NCBI GenBank assembly: GCA_048213135.1 | Contig: PS015502.1 | Coordinates: forward strand, 39,993-83,119 | Reading direction: 5' to 3' | Source: Reclinomonas americana ATCC 50394 | Lineage: Eukaryota | DNA: 43,127 bases | Part shown: positions 26,031 to 43,127 of the stretch, one piece after another | Layout of the letters: every line of letters starts with the position of its first letter | Numbering within the stretch: the first letter of the stretch is position 1 | Notes under the pieces: model-generated | Seen by the model: only the letters and a program-made list of their open reading frames with translations | Database searches by the model: none | Told to the model about the DNA's origin: nothing | Position numbers and translations under genes: made by a program

Positions 26031-27025
26031 NNNNNNNNNNNNNNNNNNNNNNNNNNNNNNNNNNNNNNNNNNNNNNNNNNNNNNNNNNNNNNNNNNNNNN
26101 NNNNNNNNNNNNNNNNNNNNNNNNNNNNNNNNNNNNNNNNNNNNNNNNNNNNNNNNNNNNNNNNNNNNNNNNNNNNNNNNNNNNNNNNNNNNNNNNNNNN
26201 NNNNNNNNNNNNNNNNNNNNNNNNNNNNNNNNNNNNNNNNNNNNNNNNNNNNNNNNNNNNNNNNNNNNNNNNNNNNNNNNNNNNNNNNNNNNNNNNNNNN
26301 NNNNNNNNNNNNNNNNNNNNNNNNNNNNNNNNNNNNNNNNNNNNNNNNNNNNNNNNNNNNNNNNNNNNNNNNNNNNNNNNNNNNNNNNNNNNNNNNNNNN
26401 NNNNNNNNNNNNNNNNNNNNNNNNNNNNNNNNNNNNNNNNNNNNNNNNNNNNNNNNNNNNNNNNNNNNNNNNNNNNNNNNNNNNNNNNNNNNNNNNNNNN
26501 NNNNNNNNNNNNNNNNNNNNNNNNNNNNNNNNNNNNNNNNNNNNNNNNNNNNNNNNNNNNNNNNNNNNNNNNNNNNNNNNNNNNNNNNNNNNNNNNNNNN
26601 NNNNNNNNNNNNNNNNNNNNNNNNNNNNNNNNNNNNNNNNNNNNNNNNNNNNNNNNNNNNNNNNNNNNNNNNNNNNNNNNNNNNNNNNNNNNNNNNNNNN
26701 NNNNNNNNNNNNNNNNNNNNNNNNNNNNNNNNNNNNNNNNNNNNNNNNNNNNNNNNNNNNNNNNNNNNNNNNNNNNNNNNNNNNNNNNNNNNNNNNNNNN
26801 NNNNNNNNNNNNNNNNNNNNNNNNNNNNNNNNNNNNNNNNNNNNNNNNNNNNNNNNNNNNNNNNNNNNNNNNNNNNNNNNNNNNNNNNNNNNNNNNNNNN
26901 NNNNNNNNNNNNNNNNNNNNNNNNNNNNNNNNNNNNNNNNNNNNNNNNNNNNNNNNNNNNNNNNNNNNNNNNNNNNNNNNNNNNNNNNNNNNNNNNNNNN
27001 NNNNNNNNNNNNNNNNNNNNNNNNN
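26031..27025. other. Assembly gap (995 N) hiding the 3' end of the BTB-SPRY gene and the 5' end of the next gene
   Basis: Run of N. Confidence 1.
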
Positions 27026-30000
27026 GCTGTCATCGACCCCCGCCGGCGCTGGCGCCACTGGACCTCTCTCGCTCACGCTTTCCTACGATGATGGGAGGCG
27101 GCGACTTGGGCCGGATGGCGATGAAGACGACGAGGAGGACGACGATGATGATGATGATGACGACGATGAGGATGACTTGGATGAGGATGATGATGGAGAG
27201 GAGGAGGACACGGCGCAGATGGAGAGTGCGCGAGGTGTGGATGACGATGGTGGAGGCATTGGTGTTTCTCGGTACGTGTGTGTGTGTGTGTGCTTGTGCA
27301 TGCGGTGCGAGGGAATGACAACTGAGATGCAATGCAGGCGGCGGTCGCGGTTGCGGCGCGCGGCGCGTCAGCCGTCGCTGCAGGAGTTGCCAGGGTTTGT
27401 GTTCGTAAAGTGCCGCGCAGGGTGCGTTCGACCTGACGCGGTCTCTTTCTGTGTCTGTGTGTGTGTTCCCCCGCGCGCAGTGTGCTGCCAATTCCGATGG
27501 AGTGGGAGATCGCATTCTACGCGCTGGCGCACTTGGTCTTCAAGCAGGGGGCGCTGGACGATGCGAATCGTGATCCAGTGACCTTTATTCCGGAGAGTGC
27601 GGCCGCGGCAGTTCGCCTCGTTTCGTATGCCGCGATGGCTGAGAGCGTGTGTGAGTTGAGGTGACTGAAAAACTCGCGACCATTAGGGTCTAGCGCCCGG
27701 TACCTCCGACCCCAAGGCCAATCGACGACTTGAAGCCATTGCACGCGTGCTGGTGGAGGCGTTTGACGAGCAGGACGTGAGCAGCGACATGATCAAGGCG
27801 TTTGTGGACTCGTCAGCAGATCGCTCTGACGCGTTTGCCGAACTGCCGTTGCGTGTTGTGCTGCGACTCCACGTCTGCCTACTCACTCACCCATTCACTT
27901 TCCACTGCCGCGCCTGCCTATTTTTGCAGTCGGATGGGAGATGAGGTCCGTGACCGCACTGGCAAGCTGGTGCAGCGCTACAAGTTCTTCCAGCCCCAGT
28001 GGCAGAGTGTGTTTGGTGCCGGCCATCGCGCACGCAACCTGGACGCTCTCAAGCAAGCCATTGTTCGCATGCGCACCGCGTACAACCGCTCTGGTGTGCA
28101 CGTGCATGTGGATGTGTGCGATCCAGTTGTCGGTTCTCACTGATCGCTCGCCCTGCAGATCTGGCAGAGGAAATGGTGCGACGCCGATCCGACGATGCAC
28201 GCATGCTGGAGCGCATTGACAAGGGACTCCGGCTGCGCTTGAGTCATCTGCTGAAGAAGGAGGTGTTCTTCTATCGGTGAGACATGCCCTTCTATTGATG
28301 TGCATGTTGCACTCGCACGTGGACTCATCAAGTCTGCAGCTACGTGTGGGTCAACGGAGCGCACTATTATTTGTGCTTGTGCGCCAAGAGCTTCTGCCTT
28401 GTGCGTGGCAAGCCGCTGCGCGACGTCGACAGCGTACTGTACGCACACATTACGCGTATCACGGAGGACGAGGAAGACATGGGACTTGTGCAGCTGACCA
28501 TCCAGAACCACGTTGCGCTGGCACTCGGTGTGCTCACAAGATCGTTGAGTGCATGCAATTCACACTCTGTGCGTGCACAGGACGACCTCTTTATCCAGGC
28601 GGACTGTCTTCGCGAGATCGTCACCGAGCTGTGTGTGCAGTGGAAGACCGACTACATGATGCGCAAGCGCGAGGTGAAGAACATTGCCGTGGAACGCGGC
28701 ATCTGCCGCTTCCCGCGTGGCCTCAAGCGCCCGTACGAACAGTACGCATCGTTCATTACGCCGCCGTTTGGGTGCGTTGTGTGGGTGCGCTTGCGATGTT
28801 GGTGCACATGCATGCTCACTCTGCGCGTGAGCAGCATGAGCCTCGTGCGCTTCGGTGTGGGTGAGCACACAAACCATTACTTCTTTTTCAAGCCCGACAA
28901 CTTCGTCTTCAATCAGCAACGCACGGATGCGATTCTTCGCCGACACCGCGATGAGGATCAGCAGCGGTTCGCCGAGAGGAAGCCACCGAAACATCGTGAT
29001 CGTCAGTACCTGGCATTCCACAATGGTTTGCATTGTTGATGCACACAGGCGTGATTGTATCGCTGACAAATCTGTGGCAGAGACGGAGACTCCACCAGTG
29101 GCGTTCCTCACGGTCGAAGTGAAGCCGCCCAAGGTTGTTCACTTTGTCAATCGCAGTGACAAGATTGTGTGTCGCCTGAAGGCCGAGACGCGAGCCAAGC
29201 GCGTGTTTGTTGCGTGCCAGTGCGCCGTCATGACTGTACCCCCCTCCAGTGTCTCACTTCGAAGTGCAGAATGTGTTCGAGGACTTTGAGTCCATGCGGT
29301 CGCACTCGTACCGCAAGCGCGCAAATCTTTCGTGTGATCCCTCCACGTGGTACTGCCATGAGGTTCGTAAGAGAGGGAGAGAGCGGTTGTGCTTTGTTGC
29401 TCAACGATATCGGTGATTTATAGGTGCATCTCAAGTCGGGGAAGCGCTCAGTTGGCGTCATTTACGCTCGTCGCAAGTGTTCGTCACCGTTATTTGTTTG
29501 TACCCCGTCTCCAATTGTTGCGTCGGCTAATGTCGCTATGTGTGTGTGCGCGCACAGTCATTCCGCCGGATGCCGACACATATCAGGACTTTGTGCTTGT
29601 GCTGGAGCAGAACCGCACCAGCGTGGACGGTAAGATGATGCGCGTGCGTGTGCCGCAGATCTATTCGTGATTGACCATGTTGGACACACTTTGGCAGCCT
29701 CCGTGAAGCAAACTCGAAAGGATTTGACTGGTTTGTTACTTGAGTGTGCGCACATGCACGTTGCCACCGTGCACTAAGTGTTGGCGTTGTGTGCAGCTGA
29801 GCTGTGGGAGAAGATTCATCTGTATGACAAGCTCCACTATGACAGCAAACGCAGCTTCCAACAGCGTGTCCTCGATCCCATTGGTGAGCACGTGAGCGCA
29901 ACCAAGTATCTCACAATCGTGTTTCACACTGTCTTCTGGGTGCAGACGGCAGTCAAAAGGTGCTCTTCAGTGACGAGATTGTTCGACCGCGGCGGCAGGA

Positions 30001-33000
30001 CGATGGCGCGAATGGTTTGCACACACATACAATTAGCATGACGCGTTCCCTTGTAGACTCACGTCAAGCGTTCCCCCTGGACAGCGGAGGAGGTGAATCA
30101 AGCGATTGTCATCACCAACTGGGGTGTGTATTTTGTGGAGCCAGCGTTTCAGGATTCACTGCGCGAGTCCTTCTCCTGGCATCATGTGCATCGTTGCGTC
30201 ACTTCTTCCTCTCTAACTACGAGGGTGCGTTCTCACGGCAGTGCAGGCGTCGAGATCCACGACTTCACCACGGCGCCGTCGTCGGACGGCTTTATCCACG
30301 TGCCGGATCCCGACGTCATTGGCAATTCATCCCGCAGCAGTGTGACCAATGTCAACACGACGCCTTCAGAGCTCTTGCTCCGGCCAGGACTGCTGTACAT
30401 GCGCCTTGTTCGCCTGGAGGTGCGCGCCGAGTCGTTTGCTCGTCATGGCCGCAGTCGTGTGTCACAGTGCTGGGTTGTTTGTGCTGCAGCGCGCGGCTGG
30501 CCATTCGAGTACATACATTGGTCCGCTGTTTGCCTGCGCCAACCGGAACACCCTTGTGCCGCTGGTGTGCCGCATCATGAAGCTGCTCGTCAGTCGTCCG
30601 ATCATGCCGTGGGTTGCGTTCGACCATCCTTTTGTTTGAGTTGTGGTAACGATGCCCGCTCGGAACTGACAGACATTGGTGTGCAGACCTTCCAAGACGG
30701 CGTCCCTGTTGGCGATGTTGGTGGCCCCTTGCAGCCCGGCGACACACATGGCACTCAACTGCGAGGCTCCGAGAGTCGAGTCGATCTCGACGTGGACCCC
30801 GTGGTGAATGCCATCGGCACCGAGTTGTCTACGGGTTCGTGAGTTTTTCGCGATATGTATCCTCGTCTCCGCACCAGCTAATGATGATGATGATGATGCA
30901 CGCAGATGTATTCATGGCACCACTGCAAGAAATGTGTGACACCCTATCGCACTTCCCCATCGAGTTCCAGTACGACTTGCTGCGCATGCGTGCCAAACTG
31001 GAGACCTTGGCATATCCTTTGTTCTTGCTCGTTCCCCGCTCAGTGTGTATTGTCGTGTGACACTTGACTCGGTTGTTTGCGTGCGCCACTGTTGACGTCC
31101 CGACGTTGGAGTGGGCAGACGTGCATTTGCAGATGCGACCGGTGCTGGAGACCATTCGAGATCATCCCGACCCGCAAGCTCGCAGATTCCCAGGTGCAAT
31201 CGGTCGCCTCAACTGCGCTATCGTGCCTCGCTTCGCCTCACACCACCCCCTTGTGCAGGACTGGAGTACGACGCCGAGCCAGAAACGCCAGCGCAGCGGT
31301 TGACCAGTCGTGATCGCGCCATGACTTTTTATCGCGCTGTGACGCAGCTCCTGGAGGAGACCAATCCCAACCTGGCCCGAGATTTCGAAAAGTTGAGCGC
31401 CCATGATGAGCGATGTGTCCTCATCCGCTGCACGCCAGTACTCACCTGTTATCTACGCGCAGTGATGATCCTTCGCGACCCGTGGACGAGCGCAAGGCGC
31501 TGTGCTGGGTGCGCCGTGGCGCGACAGTGGCCGATGTGATTGAGCATCTGGAGAACAATGTCGACTCGCCTGGTGAGAGCGGGGTGCTGCCACTGTGCGG
31601 AATGCCATTGATGAATTCGTTCACACGCCTTTGTTGCGCAAATGCAGAGGTGGCCACACCGAATCTGGTGATGCCTGAGAATGCTGGTACGTACCAGCCG
31701 GGGGGCGCTGCATCGTTCCACGCGTGCACTCATTGCTTGTGTGTGTTGCGCAGACATCAACGAGGAAGAAGTTCGCTTGATGTACCCACCGAAGCGAGCT
31801 GTAGTCATCAACGACACTGTGGTGTACTTCAAGTTCTACTTCCGCCCGCGCAATTCTGCGCAACTGGCGCAAGGAGTTGCGTCGCTGACTGCGTTGACGG
31901 CCACCCTGTCGGTAACTACGCACGCTCATCCGTGCGCGTGTAATAGGACGATGTGCCATACGACAGCCAGTACATCATTGTGCGAGTCGTCAACAAGTCG
32001 AACGTCGTTCTCAACGGCCCCATCCAGAGCGATGGGTTGCGTATCGGCGACGCACTACCGTACGAACCCTCGTATCGCTATGTCTTCCGCTGGAAGGTCT
32101 GTTGTTTGTCGCCAGCTGGCGCAACTGTAGATCTGTGTGCTCAACTGTAGGTAGGTGCCACCGACGGCGCTTGCCCTGCCGTCCAAGTCGTACCGACTGG
32201 AGGTGCATCACCGCAACTTGACGCAGCACGCATACTCCGAGTACTTCCCCATCGAGGTCTCCGAGGACTGGGAACGGTGGCGAGCAAGGCTCAGTGCCTA
32301 CCTAGCCTCGTTCATCGATGGCGTTCTGGGCTGTCCGTGCTCCCTTGCGGACGTGGTGGGCGCGGTCATTCAGTACGAGGAGGAACTGGCCGGCCGCATG
32401 TCGCGCCTGGTGAACACGCTGCTGTTGGTTGGTGGAACTCAAAGTGGTTTCAGGAGAGAAGGAGGTACTCATTGCTGTACTGCCACAGAAACCGTCGATT
32501 GCAGGTCTCGTGCACGGCGGCATGGCTGGCAGCCGTGGTGCGCTCATCGGTTCCACCGACTCCATACAGCGGCAGGGCACAGATTCGCGTTTCGCGGGTC
32601 GTGTTTCCACTGGTTCCATCCCAACGTGCGTGTTATGCGCTGTGTGGTTTCGATTGATTTGTGAGACTCATCATCATCATCATCATGTCGTTTTGTCGCA
32701 GGACCGTGACGGCAACGTCGTCGGGATCGCTACCAGTGGTGCAAGTTGTGGGCGAGGACGAGATTCACCAGGAGTCGCAGCGCACAAAGGCATTGCTGAA
32801 GCAGGTATCGTCATACGCACGCACGCGGAATGTGCACGCTGCCGTCTTTGACACAGATGTGATGCAGTTGCACGAGCTGCTGGATTACTTTATGCATCTG
32901 CGGCCAGTGGTTGGATCACTCGACATTATCACAGAGCACCCAAAGCTCGCCGATCGGGAGGGTTTGTGTTTGGCAGTCAGTGAGAACACAAGGGCTGTCG

Positions 33001-36000
33001 TGGTCATTTATTGACCTTTGAGGTGTGTCACCAGTGGCCACCATTCGCACGGCTGGTCCTGCGCAGCAGGCCCTGCCACCACTCGAGGTTGCTGCCGGCG
33101 ACTGGCTTCCAGGCATGGCGCCGTCGTCTGTCGGCTCGCCAATGTCTGTCGATGTGCGTTGTCGATTGGTTGATGACTTGAAACATGGTCGAAAGCTCAC
33201 TGTTTTATTCGTGTAGGGTGCCGGTATCGGCGTTGGCTTTGGTGGTGGAGGGGGCGGTTTCGGTCACTCACAGCCGCCGCGTGGAGGAGTGCAGGAACCG
33301 AGTTCGTTTTTGGCCAATGTCACATCAGCAGCGGCGGCTCCTGTGAGTTTTCTTCCGGTTGTTGTTGTTATGGTAGCATACATATCGCATGGTGCTCACG
33401 GTGGATGGATATCGTGCAGGGCTTTGGTGACGAAAGCGGCTCCGCAGCTGGCCGTGTGATGCGTGATGTGGCGCTGTCGCACGCTTCTGGCGCCGCTCCA
33501 AGCCTGGAAGTGGCGGATCCGTATCGTGTGGGTCGCGAGGCTGGTGCGGTGGCGTTCGCAGAGACCAGCGAAGCGCTGTGGCTGCTGGAGAAACGTTGAG
33601 TATCGTCGAGTGCACACACAGACACAAATAACTACATGATGCTGACTCTGATCACAGGTCTTCCGGTTCCGTCTGGCGGCCTTGCTGGTGATCGCAGCGG
33701 TACGCATCGCGAGGCTCGACCACGCGTCACCACAGCCTTTGTCGGAGAGGCGTTCAGTTATCAGATGATGCCCTTGCGGCAGCGGGTGAGATGCATGTTG
33801 CGACTCTCACGCACGTGCATGCCGAGTGCTCACTGCTGAAGATCCTCAGTTCCGTCGCGTCACTGAGCGACGCACCGAGCTGTTGGACGCCGACGAGGTT
33901 CGGTTCAAGGAGGAGCGCGGCCAGGTGGACTACCCGATCCTCGAGTACCGACCAGATCACTATCCACTTCGCGTGGAGAAGCTCGTCCGTTTCGCCTTCA
34001 ACGAGCACGTATTCCTTGCGCTGTTGGACGCCAAGTATTTCGAGTACGTGTTCCGCGTACGACCCGGTGAGAATGAGCAGGGTGAAGGGGAAAGTGAATC
34101 GGTGTGGTTGCTAACGTGTGTGCTGCAGACTCCGACCCGGATCTCATGCGCTTGGCGCAGCTGGAGGACGTGCTCAAGGCCGCTCGACCGCAACCTGATC
34201 TGGCCACAGTTGTTCGCTTGCGCCGACGCAGTGAGCGACAGTGTCGCATGTTACGGAGACACCGAATGATGATGGTGATGATGGATGACAGAGCACTGAA
34301 TCATTAGCTCTTCTGTGCAGGTTTGTCGGCTTCTTCATGCAGATTCTGCAGCAGCCGCTGCTGTCGGATCAGTTGGTGGCTGTTGTGTGCCAGTACCTTG
34401 CTGCATGGGTCACCAAGCGCTACTACATTCACCAGATCATGGCCTACTCGCACGAATGCATCACAACACTCCTTCGATTGTTCCCGGTACGCATGTGCGT
34501 ACTCCTCTGATGTTTGTCCGTGTTTCGCCAATGGCGATTGTTGCATGTGGCAGGGTTCCGACTTGTCAGTCGGACATGCGCACAAGGACGAGACAGCATT
34601 GATCACTGTGACCACCATGCTGATCAATCTCACGGCTACACCCGCTGCCGGCAACCGTGGTACGCACACACTGTCGCGGAGACTTGAGTGCCACTGTTGT
34701 TGTTCTTCTTGTTTGTCATCGTTATCACATTGTGCAGACATCTTGGCTCGCTCGCGAGGAACAACGGTCTGTGTGTCGGTCACTTTATCGATGGCCTTCT
34801 TTTTAGTAGTCTGGGCTCACTCTTGGCAACACAGGACGCACACAGCAGCCACACCGGCGATCATCTTGAGAGCGTACAAGAGGTTGCTCGTCGAAACATC
34901 TTCTTTCACGTTGCGTCTTTACGGTAATCCGTCGTCATTGTCATCCATTTGTTGTTAACAATTCGTCTCTGTCTGCAGTTGCGGCTCCTGCGACCATTGA
35001 TCAACCGGCTGTCGAAGCGCGATGTCCGGCTGTCGGCGTACCTTACCAAGCTCTTTGGCAACATTGTCAGCAACCCCGAGTCTCCCACGCGACCACTGCT
35101 GCTGCATCACGCTCGTGCGTCCACCGTGTGTGACCACCCACGGCGCACATTACCGTCAAGATTTTCTCACCGTATTGTGTGTCAGGTCTCACGGAGAAAC
35201 TGATTGCGTTGCTGGAGCCATCGCAATTCCCAACAAAGTCCAAGGAAGACATGTGGGACGCGGCGGCAAACTGCTTGTGGTGCGTAGTGCACTCTTTTGT
35301 TTGTTTGCATGTTCCACTAAAAGCTGCGTAGGAAAATGTGTCGTGCCGTCGACGACGTGCGCATGGCCGTGGTCAAGGACACCAGTGCTGTGCCATACCT
35401 CACTCGACTCCTGGCGCAGCGCTGCCCCAGTGACACCATGCGCTTGCAGAAGACTGTTGCGTCAATGGAACAGTGCTTTGCATGGTGGTGCATTTCGTCC
35501 CTCACGCTCGGCTCTTTGCCAGGTGGCGGGCACGTTGATGCATCTGTGCAAGAAGCCGGTGGTCACCGAAGACGGTCCAAACAAACAGGCCGAGGACGTG
35601 TGTCTGATGGCGCAAAACAAGGCACGCAAAGCCAACGCAGTGGCGTACCTGCTGGAGAACTTGAGGGTTTGTCTGATGATCATCAGAGGTTTTTGTTTCA
35701 GTGGACTGATTCACGATTGATAGGCGGCAAACACATCGCTCACGGACGCGGCCAACCCGCGAGAAGAGGCCGTGCAGCAGATGCTGAGTAGCATGACCAG
35801 TTTTGTCGGTAAGTCGCACTTTTGCAACATTTGTTCTTCATTTCAAGTCTCACCCCTTTTTTGCGTACAGCGTGTCTTCTGGCCTTGAGCGACAACCGCG
35901 AGTGTGTGGCACACATGTGCTCGTCGGCCTCGCCGACACGCGAGCTGCTGTCACAAATAAGAACGAAGCAGCAACGCATGCGGGACAGCTACGACACCGA

Positions 36001-38981: not shown

Positions 38982-41900
38982 TCATGATGAGGGACTGGGC
39001 GCGAGTGGCGAGTGGTTGCCAGACACTGTGGAGAGGAGATTGTGGTGAGTCAGTGGGTGAGACGACGTGTAGCGTCACAAATGTGCATGTCACGCAACTT
39101 GAACGGCGAATCAGTGAAGACGGCAGCGCATCGCGCGATGTCTGGCGATGCGATCGTTCGCGTCGGTGGGCGCGCTCCGAGGCCAGGATGGACACGTCGC
39201 GCAGATGCTTGGTGTGCTGGTTGAGGAAACCGTGTTGCATCTGCGCATCGTCGTCTGCAGCTGCAGCGGTAGCAGCGGCGGCGGCGCGAGGAGGAAGAGG
39301 CGGCAGCGGCCGGTGCGCCACTGGCACTCCGGTCACGATCGCGTCGTCCACTCCCGCCCCGGCGTGTGCACCCGCCACGGCGACCACGGCGGCACCGACG
39401 CTTGGTTTCTTCGGGCGCGGCGGATTGGACGAACCGGTGCCGGCTGTCGGCGAGGTACCGGGGGGTCGGCTACCGACCGTCAACTCGACCGCGGCACTGG
39501 TGCCTTCGTTTGGCAGCTTTGCCGGTGGTGGTGGTGGCGGTGGAGCCTGTACATGGCTGGTTAGTGACCTTACGAGCCCGTCGCACGCGCTGTGTTGCAC
39601 TCTTACCTCGCACTCGACGCACTGCACAAAGACGTCGATGGTCTCGAAAAACGATGGCATCGAGAACGTCTTGGGGTCTTCTGCAAAGTAGGCGCGCACT
39701 TGGTCCCGCAGTGCAGGCACACGCGCCGCATCTGCCAGCAGACTCTTGTATTGAGCCTCGTGCCGCTGTGTGAGGCAATACAATGAGCATAAAAAAGTGA
39801 ATCGAAGCCACAAGTCTGGTCCGGCGACATGCACACCTGCAGTTCAGAGAGAACAGCCGGACCGAGTGGGTCATGCGGATGTGACAACGAGGCAGCAGCC
39901 ACCTTTTGTGCCAGTTCCCATGCCGCGCGCAATTGGTTGACAGATTGCAAGGTGACTGTGTGTGCGTGTGTGAGTTAATGCACTCGTTATTGGAGAACGA
40001 GTAAAAGAAGAGACCAACCATCAACATTAACTGCGACAACGAAACAAGAAAACGTGAGCAACGAGACGGTGATGGAGGGCGATACAGTGCGTGGGACTCA
40101 CCGGCGCGGGCGTCGACAATGTGTGGAAGCTGTGACGAGGGATCATGAGGCGTTTCGCGATTGCGAGACCGTGTGTGCTGATGAAGATTTCAAATGCACG
40201 TACCTCAGAGCGCACGTCGAGCAAATCGTGTTCCGAGTGCGCAATGTGCTCCGCGATGCACTTGAGGAGTGTGGTGCCCCGATTGCTCCTCGTTTCCCGC
40301 AGCTATTGTAGTAGTGCGTGAGGAAGAGCTGTTGTGGGTGCGAGGACGAGTGTCGATACTTCGCTCACCTTGGTCAGTGACTCCAGCTTGAAGCCAAAGG
40401 TGTTACCGCGGTGCGTGTTGCCGTTGACGTAGTTGCCGATGGCGAGAACGACAGTGAGAAGCCGCACAAGCCGCCTACTTTGCAGCACCTACAGGAGGAG
40501 GTACACACACAATGTCACCGTCGTGTGCCCACACATGCAGCGGACTACAGAGCAAGCAAACCTCGGTGCACGCAAACACCACATCTTCCACTTTCTGCGA
40601 CACCATACACGCACTGGTTAGATCGCCACGAGGGAATGCCGCAGTTCCAACACCTCCGCTCCACTCACTCTGTGCAGCTCGTCCAGTGCCGCCGCACATC
40701 GAAGGGAGAACAACCAAGTGTTGAGTCGATCCAACAGGCGTGGCACAGCAGTCACCTGATGAAGGTACCGATCATCAGTGACACGAACCTCGTCGGGGCA
40801 GCACCGGCCTGCAGCACTCACCGCTCGAATGAATCGCTCCGGAGCATCCAGCGCGTCCTCTGGTCCCTCAAAGGACTGCACGAGAGTCACCTACAAGGCA
40901 TGGACCAACATCCAGTGAGCACGTGCTTGCCATCTGCGCTGCAGTTCTTTCAATGTAGACCTCATCCTCGGTGGGAATTTGCATCGCAGCGATCAGTGAT
41001 TCCACCTGTCGTGCCAGCAGGAATGGTTAGCTGTAGGGAGAGTGGACGGACTGCTCTCGACTGCCACGTGCCTTTTCTTCGGTGAGGAAGTTGCGGTCCA
41101 TCATTGCGATTGCGTGCTGCACACGGTCGAACGGGGGTTGCTCAAAGACGCGACGGACAATGATGCCTGCAGCAAAAGTGTACACAGAGTCAGAGAGGCA
41201 TCAACGGGCACATATACGTGTGAGGCCAGCCAGTTGCTTGCGAAACTCATGTTGAGATGTCGTCGTCCCTCCAGCAGCTGCAGTTTACGCACAGCTACGA
41301 AAAAACCACGGGAGGTGACATCACTGCCGAACGCGCTCTCCAAGCAGTCACAACATTCACGCAACTTGGCTTCGGCTCCGGCGCGGGTGGCCCGTTGTGC
41401 TCATCGTGCCGCACTGGTGCTGGCGCCGGTGCATCGAGAACACCGAACAACGTACACAGTCGTGTCTCATCCAAGTGCACCGTCGACACGAGTTGGTCCG
41501 TCTGCAGTGATCGATGCGGTCAGAAGCAACAGAAGGGTGTTGAGTGAGGAGGACGGCTCACCTTTCCCAGCTCCCACACAGTTCCCTTGAGCTTCTCGCT
41601 GCACACCGATGAGAAATCGACGACGGATGAGACACCGCTGACGAGACAGCTGCAGAGAAAAACACGACTCACAAAGGCAGCTGGCTCCACTGAAAACCTC
41701 GCATCTTCATCGGCGGAGTCGGAACATTGATCTTGCGCTGTGTAAACTGGTTTGGAGCAGGAGGGGCAGGTGGTGCCAGAGGACCCGGTGGAGCAGGTGG
41801 TGCGGGTGGTGCGGGTGGTGCGGGCGGTCCAGGTGGGCCGGGTGGGGCTGGCGGAGCGGGTGGCGCAGGTGGGGCCGGTCGTGCATGCTGCTCTTGAGGC

Positions 41901-43127
41901 CTGGGTGGAGCAGGTGGAGCGGGTGGTGCTGGCGGAGCCGGCGGGGCGGGTGGTGCTGGCGGCGCTGGTGGCGCAGGTGGCGCTGGTGGCGCTGGCGCAT
42001 GCTGATCTTGAGCAGGCGCTGCGCTGTGCGACCCGTTTGCTTGTCGCTGGCTGAGGGCGTCGTGGAGTAGTTCTTGCACCGCGAGGCCGAGCTGCATAGG
42101 CGTACTTTATGATACACACGTTCGCGCCTTGTGCTCCATCAAGATTCACACACACCTTGGACTTGAACGCGGCAGCGCGCAAACGCTCAGCAACCGATGC
42201 CGGGTCCGCATGAAGCACATCACGAAGCATGTCCACGTCTTCTTGCTGGCTGAGTTCGCGCTATGCGAACGACAAAAGCAACTCAGCAATCACAGCTACT
42301 GTCGATCGAGCGCGCACGCTTCTCACCGCCATGTGCTCTTTGTGCAGCGACTGCAGCTTTGCGCGATCGCTCTGCTCGATAGAACGGTCGGTGATGCCGT
42401 GACCTGGTGGAGAACACAACATGTGAGCACCGCATCACTTTGTTACAGAGTGCAATGGACACACCAGTCTCAAACTCGCGTCCAGTACTCTGCACAAAGC
42501 GTGCCAGCGCTCGCCAAAACACGGTCACCGAATCCGGTTGCCTGCCGTGTGCGTGTTAACGAGGTGGAGAAATAGCTGTGTCGTAAGCGCACGGCGACGC
42601 AACTCGTCAACATGCTGCGACACTCGCAGCAACTCCTGCAGTGCACGGATAAAGTGACCCAGCGATTCGCTGCTGTTGCTGAGTTCCACTGCGGTGGCAT
42701 CGGCAAGAGCTGCTGGATCCGTGACAATCACACAGCGAGTTAAGGAACACATCAAAGCAGTGCATCAAATGGAAGGCAAGGCACACAATTGACAAGAGCA
42801 AAGGATATTCAACATCGAGAAAGAGCAGGTCGTCTGACGGATCTCGGACCTCCTCTAGCAGTTCGTTGAGATGCTCAGCAACTTCACGCGAAATCGCTGA
42901 CTGTGTATCGAGCTCCTCGGCGACCCTCTGTCAGTATGCATGATGATGAGCGTGTGCAAGACCGGTGTTACACGGTCTAGAGATTCCAGCAGTGTTACCA
43001 TGCAGACGTCGACCAGGTGGGCGGCACGCAGCTCGCGCTTCAGCTTCCCGCGCATGTGCTCGGCCACATCCAGCATCACGTTAAAGTACGTGATGCAAGC
43101 AAGCTGCCACGTACGCGAGACACGTTT
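38982..43127 (-). CDS. Formin (FH3-FH1-FH2); 5' end outside the window
   Basis: FH3-like LACITYFNVML; FH1 (PPA)n; FH2 PMKMRGFQWSQL, KGTVW, LLEGRRHLNMSI, VLAIGNYVNGNTHRGNTFGFKLESLTKL, GTTLL, YFAEDP...FF. Inferred stop TGA 38984-38982. Confidence 0.93.
41006..41071 (-). other. GC-AG intron in the formin FH2 region
   Basis: AAG|GCACGT donor, GCTAAC branch, CAG acceptor. Joins NFLTEEK|VESLIAAM and removes an in-frame TAA. Confidence 0.7.
41757..42000 (-). repeat. Coding 9-bp degenerate tandem repeat encoding the (PPA/PPG)n FH1 domain
   Basis: The + strand shows repeated ggtggcgct/ggtggtgcg/ggtggagca units. The minus translation is APAPPAPPAPPA... Confidence 0.9.
42721..42808 (-). other. U12-type (minor spliceosome) AT-AC intron in the formin gene
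   Basis: Minus-strand donor ATATCCTTT (42808-42800), perfect branch point TTCCTTAAC (42747-42739), acceptor CAC| at 42721. Joins LFLDVE|DPAALAD in frame (phase 2). Confidence 0.93.

Follow-up and report, generated by a model that had tools for sequence, protein, structure and literature searches.

The window, a stretch of 43,127 nucleotides from Reclinomonas americana ATCC 50394, carries a U12-type AT-AC intron in a formin gene, as the initial annotation had proposed; its motifs, its reading frame, its position relative to human DIAPH1-3 and a genome-wide family of such introns all agree. The intron at 42808-42721 is real and is an ordinary member of its class, its splicing being predicted from the sequence. 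As a single intron it is textbook, but it is remarkable in age. We consider it likely that the following hold jointly: the intron is an ancestral U12-type intron of the A subtype, a minor spliceosome is resident in this organism, the repertoire of this spliceosome is ~96% AT-AC, and the skew was produced by a sieve.

The AT-AC intron of the formin gene

The gene and the elements of the predicted intron are located as follows.

39050..43127, minus strand: host formin gene, GBD-FH3-FH1-FH2, with its 5' part beyond the window and its 3' end approximate
42809..42927, minus strand: upstream exon of 119 nt, beginning in phase 0 and ending in phase 2
42721..42808, minus strand: U12-type AT-AC intron of the diaphanous-type formin, 88 nt, phase 2, located in its FH3/dimerisation region
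42800..42808, minus strand: U12-type donor ATATCCTTT, of which +5 to +9 can pair with the 5' end of the genome's U11
42739..42747, minus strand: U12-type branch-point motif TTCCTTAAC, at 18 nt from the 3' end of the intron
42721..42723, minus strand: CAC acceptor, kept in the second haplotype
42604..42720, minus strand: downstream exon of 117 nt, beginning and ending in phase 2, with GTTGCG as the next donor

The formin was modelled with 22 exons from 43103 to 39050, and the model is open throughout with the AT-AC join; the 5' exons of the gene were read from the second haplotype. The spliced N-terminal GBD-FH3 protein matched a profile of 14 database formins with an E value of 3.6e-35, unbroken across the join; taken one by one, the FH3 exons yielded nothing useful in Pfam or PDB. 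An FH2 Pfam match (43 bits) was found on one exon and a proline-rich FH1 was visible, which gives the order GBD/FH3, FH1, FH2. By this domain order the predicted protein is a diaphanous-related formin, the domains identified being GBD, FH3, FH1 and FH2, with no DAD among them. The 21 introns of the model are short (median 70 nt), and the U12 branch motif is absent from the other 20. These 20 non-AT introns show 14 different donor hexamers. Donors of the GTTGCG/GTTTCG/GTTTGC/GTTGGT type, which lack an exonic G, were observed at 42603, 41365, 41246, 40561 and 40018 on the minus strand and at 4669 of L107, and one GC donor occurs in the gene at 41071. The gene immediately upstream of the formin encodes a DRG-type GTPase. 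Just beyond the window, a 2.4-kb gap of Ns (L005, 4621-6995) corresponds to ~120 bases in the other haplotype (L107), which indicates that gap sizes in the assembly are unreliable.

On the minus strand, the upstream exon ends with GATGTTGA and is followed by ATATCCTTTG from 42808, and the 3' junction at 42721 reads TGTCAC followed by GGATCCA. The intron length of 88 nt is not a multiple of three, and the split codon is GA plus G. Splicing out the 88 nt yields LFLDVE-DPAAL in phase 2, with the AC acceptor restoring the frame, whereas retention leads to a frameshift and stops. Thus, the donor, the branch point 18 nt from the end, phase 2 and the restoration of the frame between DVE and DPA were all reproduced as first described. 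The donor ATATCCTTT at 42808 agrees with the 5' splice-site consensus RTATCCTT, and TTCCTTAAC, at 18 nt from the end, agrees with the branch consensus TTCCTTRAC and its distance of at most ~45 nt from the 3' end. Because both U12 motifs are perfect, the intron falls outside the U2-type AT-AC class, which lacks the U12 consensus. A strict pattern of donor, branch motif and AC matched once in the whole window. The expected numbers on both strands together, from a third-order Markov model trained on the window, are 0.046 for ATATCCTTT and 0.016 for TTCCTTAAC, and the product of the two expectations predicts the pair within ~60 nt about once per million windows.

The second haplotype (contig C163, 97% identical, recognised by DNA similarity) keeps the donor, the branch point and the acceptor, and 3 of the 53 bases of the intron interior differ between the haplotypes. 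When possible joins were scored with the protein profile, the AT-AC join ranked fifth among 195 open alternatives (8.4 bits); the best one (13.7 bits) combined the donor of the AT-AC intron with an acceptor 6 nt upstream. Hence, it is the consensus and the human junction, and not the profile score, that determine the acceptor.

The corresponding junction in human DIAPH genes

When the formin was compared with animal diaphanous formins, as the initial annotation had suggested, the predicted intron proved to share its alignment column, phase and AT-AC subtype with the minor intron of human DIAPH1/2/3. The profile alignment puts the split codon at residue D456 of protein P0045, and the PDB alignment places this column at the first Asp of IRMEMDDF in mDia1. 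The human DIAPH1 junction is given as type AT_AC, with TGGAGATGGA before and ATATCCTTTT after the donor boundary and TTCCAC followed by TGACTT at the acceptor (PMC8280824, supplement file 1); in the same source, DIAPH2 and DIAPH3 are likewise AT_AC and in phase 2 after the GA of an Asp codon. The hg19 limits of the DIAPH1 intron (PMC6800510) together with the variant c.1051 at chr5:140957904 (PMC13227654, Table 1) provide an independent placement of this intron after c.1163 in phase 2.

The first AT-AC intron of human DIAPH1-3 resembles that of the formin in lying in the FH3/dimerisation column, in following an exon end GA, and in having the ATATCCTTT donor and a YAC acceptor. The lengths differ: 88 nt here, compared with 633 nt in DIAPH1 (reference intron hg38 chr5:141577592-141578224), 1914 nt in DIAPH2 and 793 nt in DIAPH3. 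The second DIAPH AT-AC intron, in FH2, had no counterpart at that codon of the formin model in a by-eye alignment. The exons flanking the human intron are, we presume, 119 and 117 nt long, as in the R. americana formin. A paralogous formin (L088), recognised by an FH3 Pfam match, carries an AT-AC intron at the site of the formin intron and offers a 117-nt exon ending at GTTGCG, as the downstream exon of the formin does.

The supplement files of PMC4066798 that were examined contained no DIAPH rows. The literature searched did not mention the DIAPH intron in any organism other than animals; the main text of PMC10639083 contains neither "formin" nor "diaphanous", its FigShare and supplementary tables being outside the search. 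The match to the DIAPH1-3 junction dates the AT-AC intron and its subtype to before the split between animals and this protist, and suggests that the intron is older than some formin duplications.

The genome-wide AT-AC repertoire

The pattern ATATCCTT-N35-65-CTTRAC matched 165 times in the genome, a two-haplotype assembly, against 5 matches in the reversed control, and its GT version matched 12 times against 5. The excess over the control, 160 versus 7, corresponds to ~96% AT-type among introns with the canonical branch point and spacing; without background subtraction and with the upper-bound GT count, the AT-type share is at least 88%. This share covers one spacing band (N35-65) and the fixed branch motif CTTRAC and can miss deviant GT-type introns. 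Of the 165 matches, 100 were listed; 76 of these were examined and 24 were skipped by eye as alleles or as already covered, which yielded at least 70 distinct AT-type sites, 64 of them with CCTTRAC.

In 59 of the 64 AT-type introns, the first AC or AG at least 7 nt past the branch is AC (p 2.5e-11), the AC background being 54% (10,030/18,618). The branch motif is CCTTGAC, with G as the purine, in 59 of the 64 distinct introns; TTCCTTAAC of the formin represents the minority form. By a codon-usage heuristic, which carried an AC bonus and misplaced at least three acceptors that were then corrected, 10, 33 and 21 of the 64 introns are in phases 0, 1 and 2, respectively. A phase bias of this kind is typical of minor introns (PMC10639083, section 29). 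The interiors of the AT-type introns are unrelated in sequence. Between alleles (8 pairs), the motifs differed at 0 of 136 positions versus 37 of 400 inside the introns, a comparison that is largely circular because seven of the eight pairs had been chosen by motif; only the formin pair is independent.

The window itself contains one further candidate.

31012..31089, plus strand: second AT-AC candidate, 78 nt, phase 2, with donor ATATCCTTTG and the weaker branch-like CACTTGAC

Its allele on C163 (L074) keeps both motifs, and the unspliced frame stops. The host is a long multi-exon gene at roughly 27000-36000. Elsewhere, minor-type introns of both kinds, one AT-AC and one GT-AG, occur in a gene for a voltage-gated channel, and two AT-AC introns occur in a two-pore-channel-like gene (L018 and L058 on contig C20; L103). 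AT-AC introns were also observed in telomerase, casein kinase II beta, UDPGP-family, RmlD-like and NagB-like genes (L084, L072, L089, L108 and L022), none of which is, to our knowledge, known as a minor-intron gene. The largest contigs, C1-C2 (L006, L056), look bacterial, and the assembly probably includes other organisms, so that any count per megabase is too low. We rejected an expansion like that of Physarum, the counts being modest for a genome with ~5 introns per kb in its formin gene.

We regard it as unlikely, though a serious alternative, that the search itself created the AT-AC excess, the repertoire being ordinary and its GT-type introns having been missed on account of greater length or deviant branch points. 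The pattern fixes CTTRAC and a gap of 35-65 nt and missed the GT-type donor of CENATAC, and in 468 kb of this genome one real-looking GT-type (CENATAC) and one AT-type (L023) site, both in unselected flanks, lay outside the pattern. However, a looser GT donor pattern gave no excess over the control (25 versus 29), and two GT-type allele pairs that look like real GT-AG minor introns share their length and branch motif with the AT-type introns. Major introns are short as well, with a median of 70 nt, and an ordinary AT-AC share of 25-30% would need several hundred hidden GT-type copies.

Just as doubtful is the proposal that the skew came from active gain of AT-AC minor introns or from switching of GT to AT, and not from loss of GT-AG introns. 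We compared 23 host-gene terms, named partly by Pfam and partly by eye, with the human minor-intron list. Gain would be consistent with the 15 terms that have no row in this list, with four more whose human rows lie at other sites (among the rows listed for MAPK, CACNA1, SCN and TBC1D), and with hosts such as the telomerase, casein kinase II beta, UDPGP and RmlD-like genes. Four terms appeared to fall at the same site when short flanks were compared by eye: POLE2 and CACNA1/SCN are AT-AC in both species, whereas the SAC phosphatase intron (SACM1L) is AT-AC here and GT-AG in human, as switching would predict. The human list may be incomplete, however, and the total of 165 copies in a two-haplotype assembly and one spacing band is modest, with nothing like the expansion in Physarum. 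The unrelated interiors of the AT-type introns and their phase bias, which is that of old minor introns, also argue against this proposal.

Section 24 of PMC10639083 puts the AT-AC share of minor introns at ~26% for human and at 77% for Blastocystis. Blastocystis sp. subtype 1, with 196 AT-AC introns out of 253, is like R. americana in being AT-AC-rich with short introns (PMC10639083), but its introns are 49% phase 0 and ~42 nt long, whereas those of R. americana are ~16% phase 0 (10/64, by the heuristic) and ~85 nt long, with a higher AT-AC share. Section 24 of PMC10639083 also gives 90 minor introns and massive minor-to-major conversion for Pelomyxa schiedti and 265 minor introns for Protostelium aurantium. 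As far as these sources describe them, Acanthamoeba castellanii, P. schiedti, P. aurantium and Physarum share with R. americana U11, a U6atac of the CC type and minor introns numbering about a hundred. According to the Physarum preprint, Physarum polycephalum has 3021 GT versus 627 AT perfect donors (627/3648), compared with ~96% AT-type here; its branch point has changed to TTTGA, whereas R. americana keeps CCTTRAC. The preprint also describes AT-AC introns as missing from the annotation, in line with the expectation in the initial annotation that standard gene predictors would mis-model such a junction. No AT-AC share above 77% was found reported in the literature searched, the subtype tables of PMC10639083, which may include amoebozoan ones, being outside the search. 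If true, a repertoire of almost nothing but AT-AC introns would be the most one-sided among the reports found. Minor splicing in protists and AT-AC enrichment are already known; the repertoire described here is probably an unusual variant.

Minor-spliceosome components and the origin of the skew

The further inference that this organism retains minor splicing was supported by U11 and U6atac, in two copies each, and by CENATAC; U12 and U4atac, the other two of the four snRNAs named in the initial annotation, were not found. In Rfam searches of the genome, U11 scored 51 bits against a cut-off of 39 and U6atac 37.8 and 34.9 bits against a cut-off of 33, the two copies being allele-like in both cases. 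The CENATAC/CCDC84 family PF14968 was above its cut-off at two places that are 96% identical. In silico, the 5' end of U11 can pair with donor positions +5 to +9 (duplex -4.4 kcal/mol). The donor-pairing box of U6atac is ACCGA, versus AAGGA in the Rfam consensus, and cannot pair well with the donor. We rejected this altered box as a novelty because it is the published CC variant, which has been reported in Acanthamoeba, Physarum, oomycetes and others and is left unexplained in that account (PMC2396436, section 16). The 5' part of the CC-type U6atac (L003 1501-1632; L004 1501-1630) can fold back over the box as ACCG-AGAGA-CGGT.

Neither U12 nor U4atac gave an Rfam match in the genome or the control, with 42 of 1907 and 50 of 876 first-look candidates scored, respectively; given the few candidates scored and the gapped assembly, this non-detection is no evidence of absence. 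Promoter-anchored patterns for U12 and U4atac matched 2 times versus 2 in the control and 16 versus 10, and cmscan identified no snRNA among them. The element WCCCACAAYCG was observed ~70 nt upstream of U11 (L001/L002) and also upstream of U6atac (L003/L004); we take it to resemble the snRNA upstream elements of Dictyostelium and plants. The likeness to Dictyostelium and the CC-type U6atac may hint at an amoebozoan affinity. The U11 element matched 85 times, and among the 82 loci read and the 40 scanned there was no U12 or U4atac, most matches being chance or coding. It also precedes ~95-nt units (two copies in L179, and L182) whose ends, GAGAGAGG and CCTCTCT, can pair and which had no Rfam match.

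The CENATAC gene has two competing donors in both of its copies.

L194, minus strand: major donor at 1972, U12-type donor at 1952, acceptor at 1835
L195: major donor at 1970, U12-type donor at 1950, acceptor at 1832

The in-frame major-type donor GTGCGT defines a 138-nt intron. A U12-type GT donor, GTATCCTTTT, lies 20 nt further downstream, 118 nt from the acceptor and with a branch-like TTCCTAAAC; its use with the acceptor of the GTGCGT intron shifts the frame. In animals, competing major (productive) and minor (unproductive) donors of CENATAC constitute an autoregulatory circuit, and the arrangement here, an in-frame major donor near an out-of-frame U12-type donor, is like those described for animals and plants (PMC8280824). 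The donor pair, seen as sequence in two haplotypes, is thus a candidate for an autoregulatory switch like that of animals.

It is highly improbable that the AT-AC introns are relics of U12-type sequence now removed by the major spliceosome in the manner of U2-type AT-AC introns, the minor machinery being incomplete. Such a reading would account for the missing Rfam matches to U12 and U4atac, but in at least 64 distinct introns donor and branch motif conform to the consensus over their full length, and such motifs would decay without snRNAs reading them; U11, U6atac and CENATAC, moreover, look intact in both haplotypes. That the formin stretch is not spliced at its AT-AC ends, and instead reflects a nearby GT/GC-AG intron or a broken gene, is scarcely credible: 97 GT/GC-AG joins are formally open and profile scores separate them poorly, but these joins delete conserved residues or translate intron-like sequence, whereas the AT-AC junction exactly matches those of human DIAPH and the paralogue L088, with its signals in both haplotypes.

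Most likely, R. americana has an ancestral working minor spliceosome of which the GT-AG substrates were mostly lost or converted to the major type. We lean towards the stronger version, in which this spliceosome serves almost only AT-AC introns (roughly at least nine in ten) after wholesale GT-AG conversion, with the CENATAC feedback switch kept. With such an ancestral spliceosome, the formin intron would descend from one already present in the ancestor that this protist shares with animals. U11 would pair with donor positions +5 to +9, as the in silico duplex suggests, and a putative U12 would pair with the branch motif. The CC-type U6atac, for which the gene was found, may form the catalytic core, and the CENATAC protein may assist A-type splicing, a role known from human work. 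The proposed sieve would operate through the donor: GT-AG minor introns could become major introns by donor decay alone, a conversion that the loose major donors of this genome may ease, and AT-AC introns, which would need changes at both ends, would remain.

A CDK/MAPK-type kinase may illustrate such a conversion. A 55-nt major-type GTTGCG-AG intron without the U12 branch motif interrupts it in phase 1, roughly where human MAPK10/12/14 carry their G-type minor intron. Two additional codons precede the donor, and part of the protein context of the human site is our assumption. As the kinase family is loosely assigned, this intron is a hint only. The sieve thus has a single uncertain example. 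The intron of the SAC phosphatase either points in the opposite direction or goes back to a switch on the animal side.

About 100 genes of this genome need AT-AC-aware annotation. If confirmed by RNA, the AT-AC skew would bear on whether conversion, a process expected to leave AT-AC introns in place, is the main way in which minor introns disappear, and on what A-type-specific factors such as CENATAC do. If the reading is true, R. americana would offer a natural test bed for the persistence of A-type introns and the direction of subtype switching, as well as for the working of a CC-type U6atac that does not pair with the donor.
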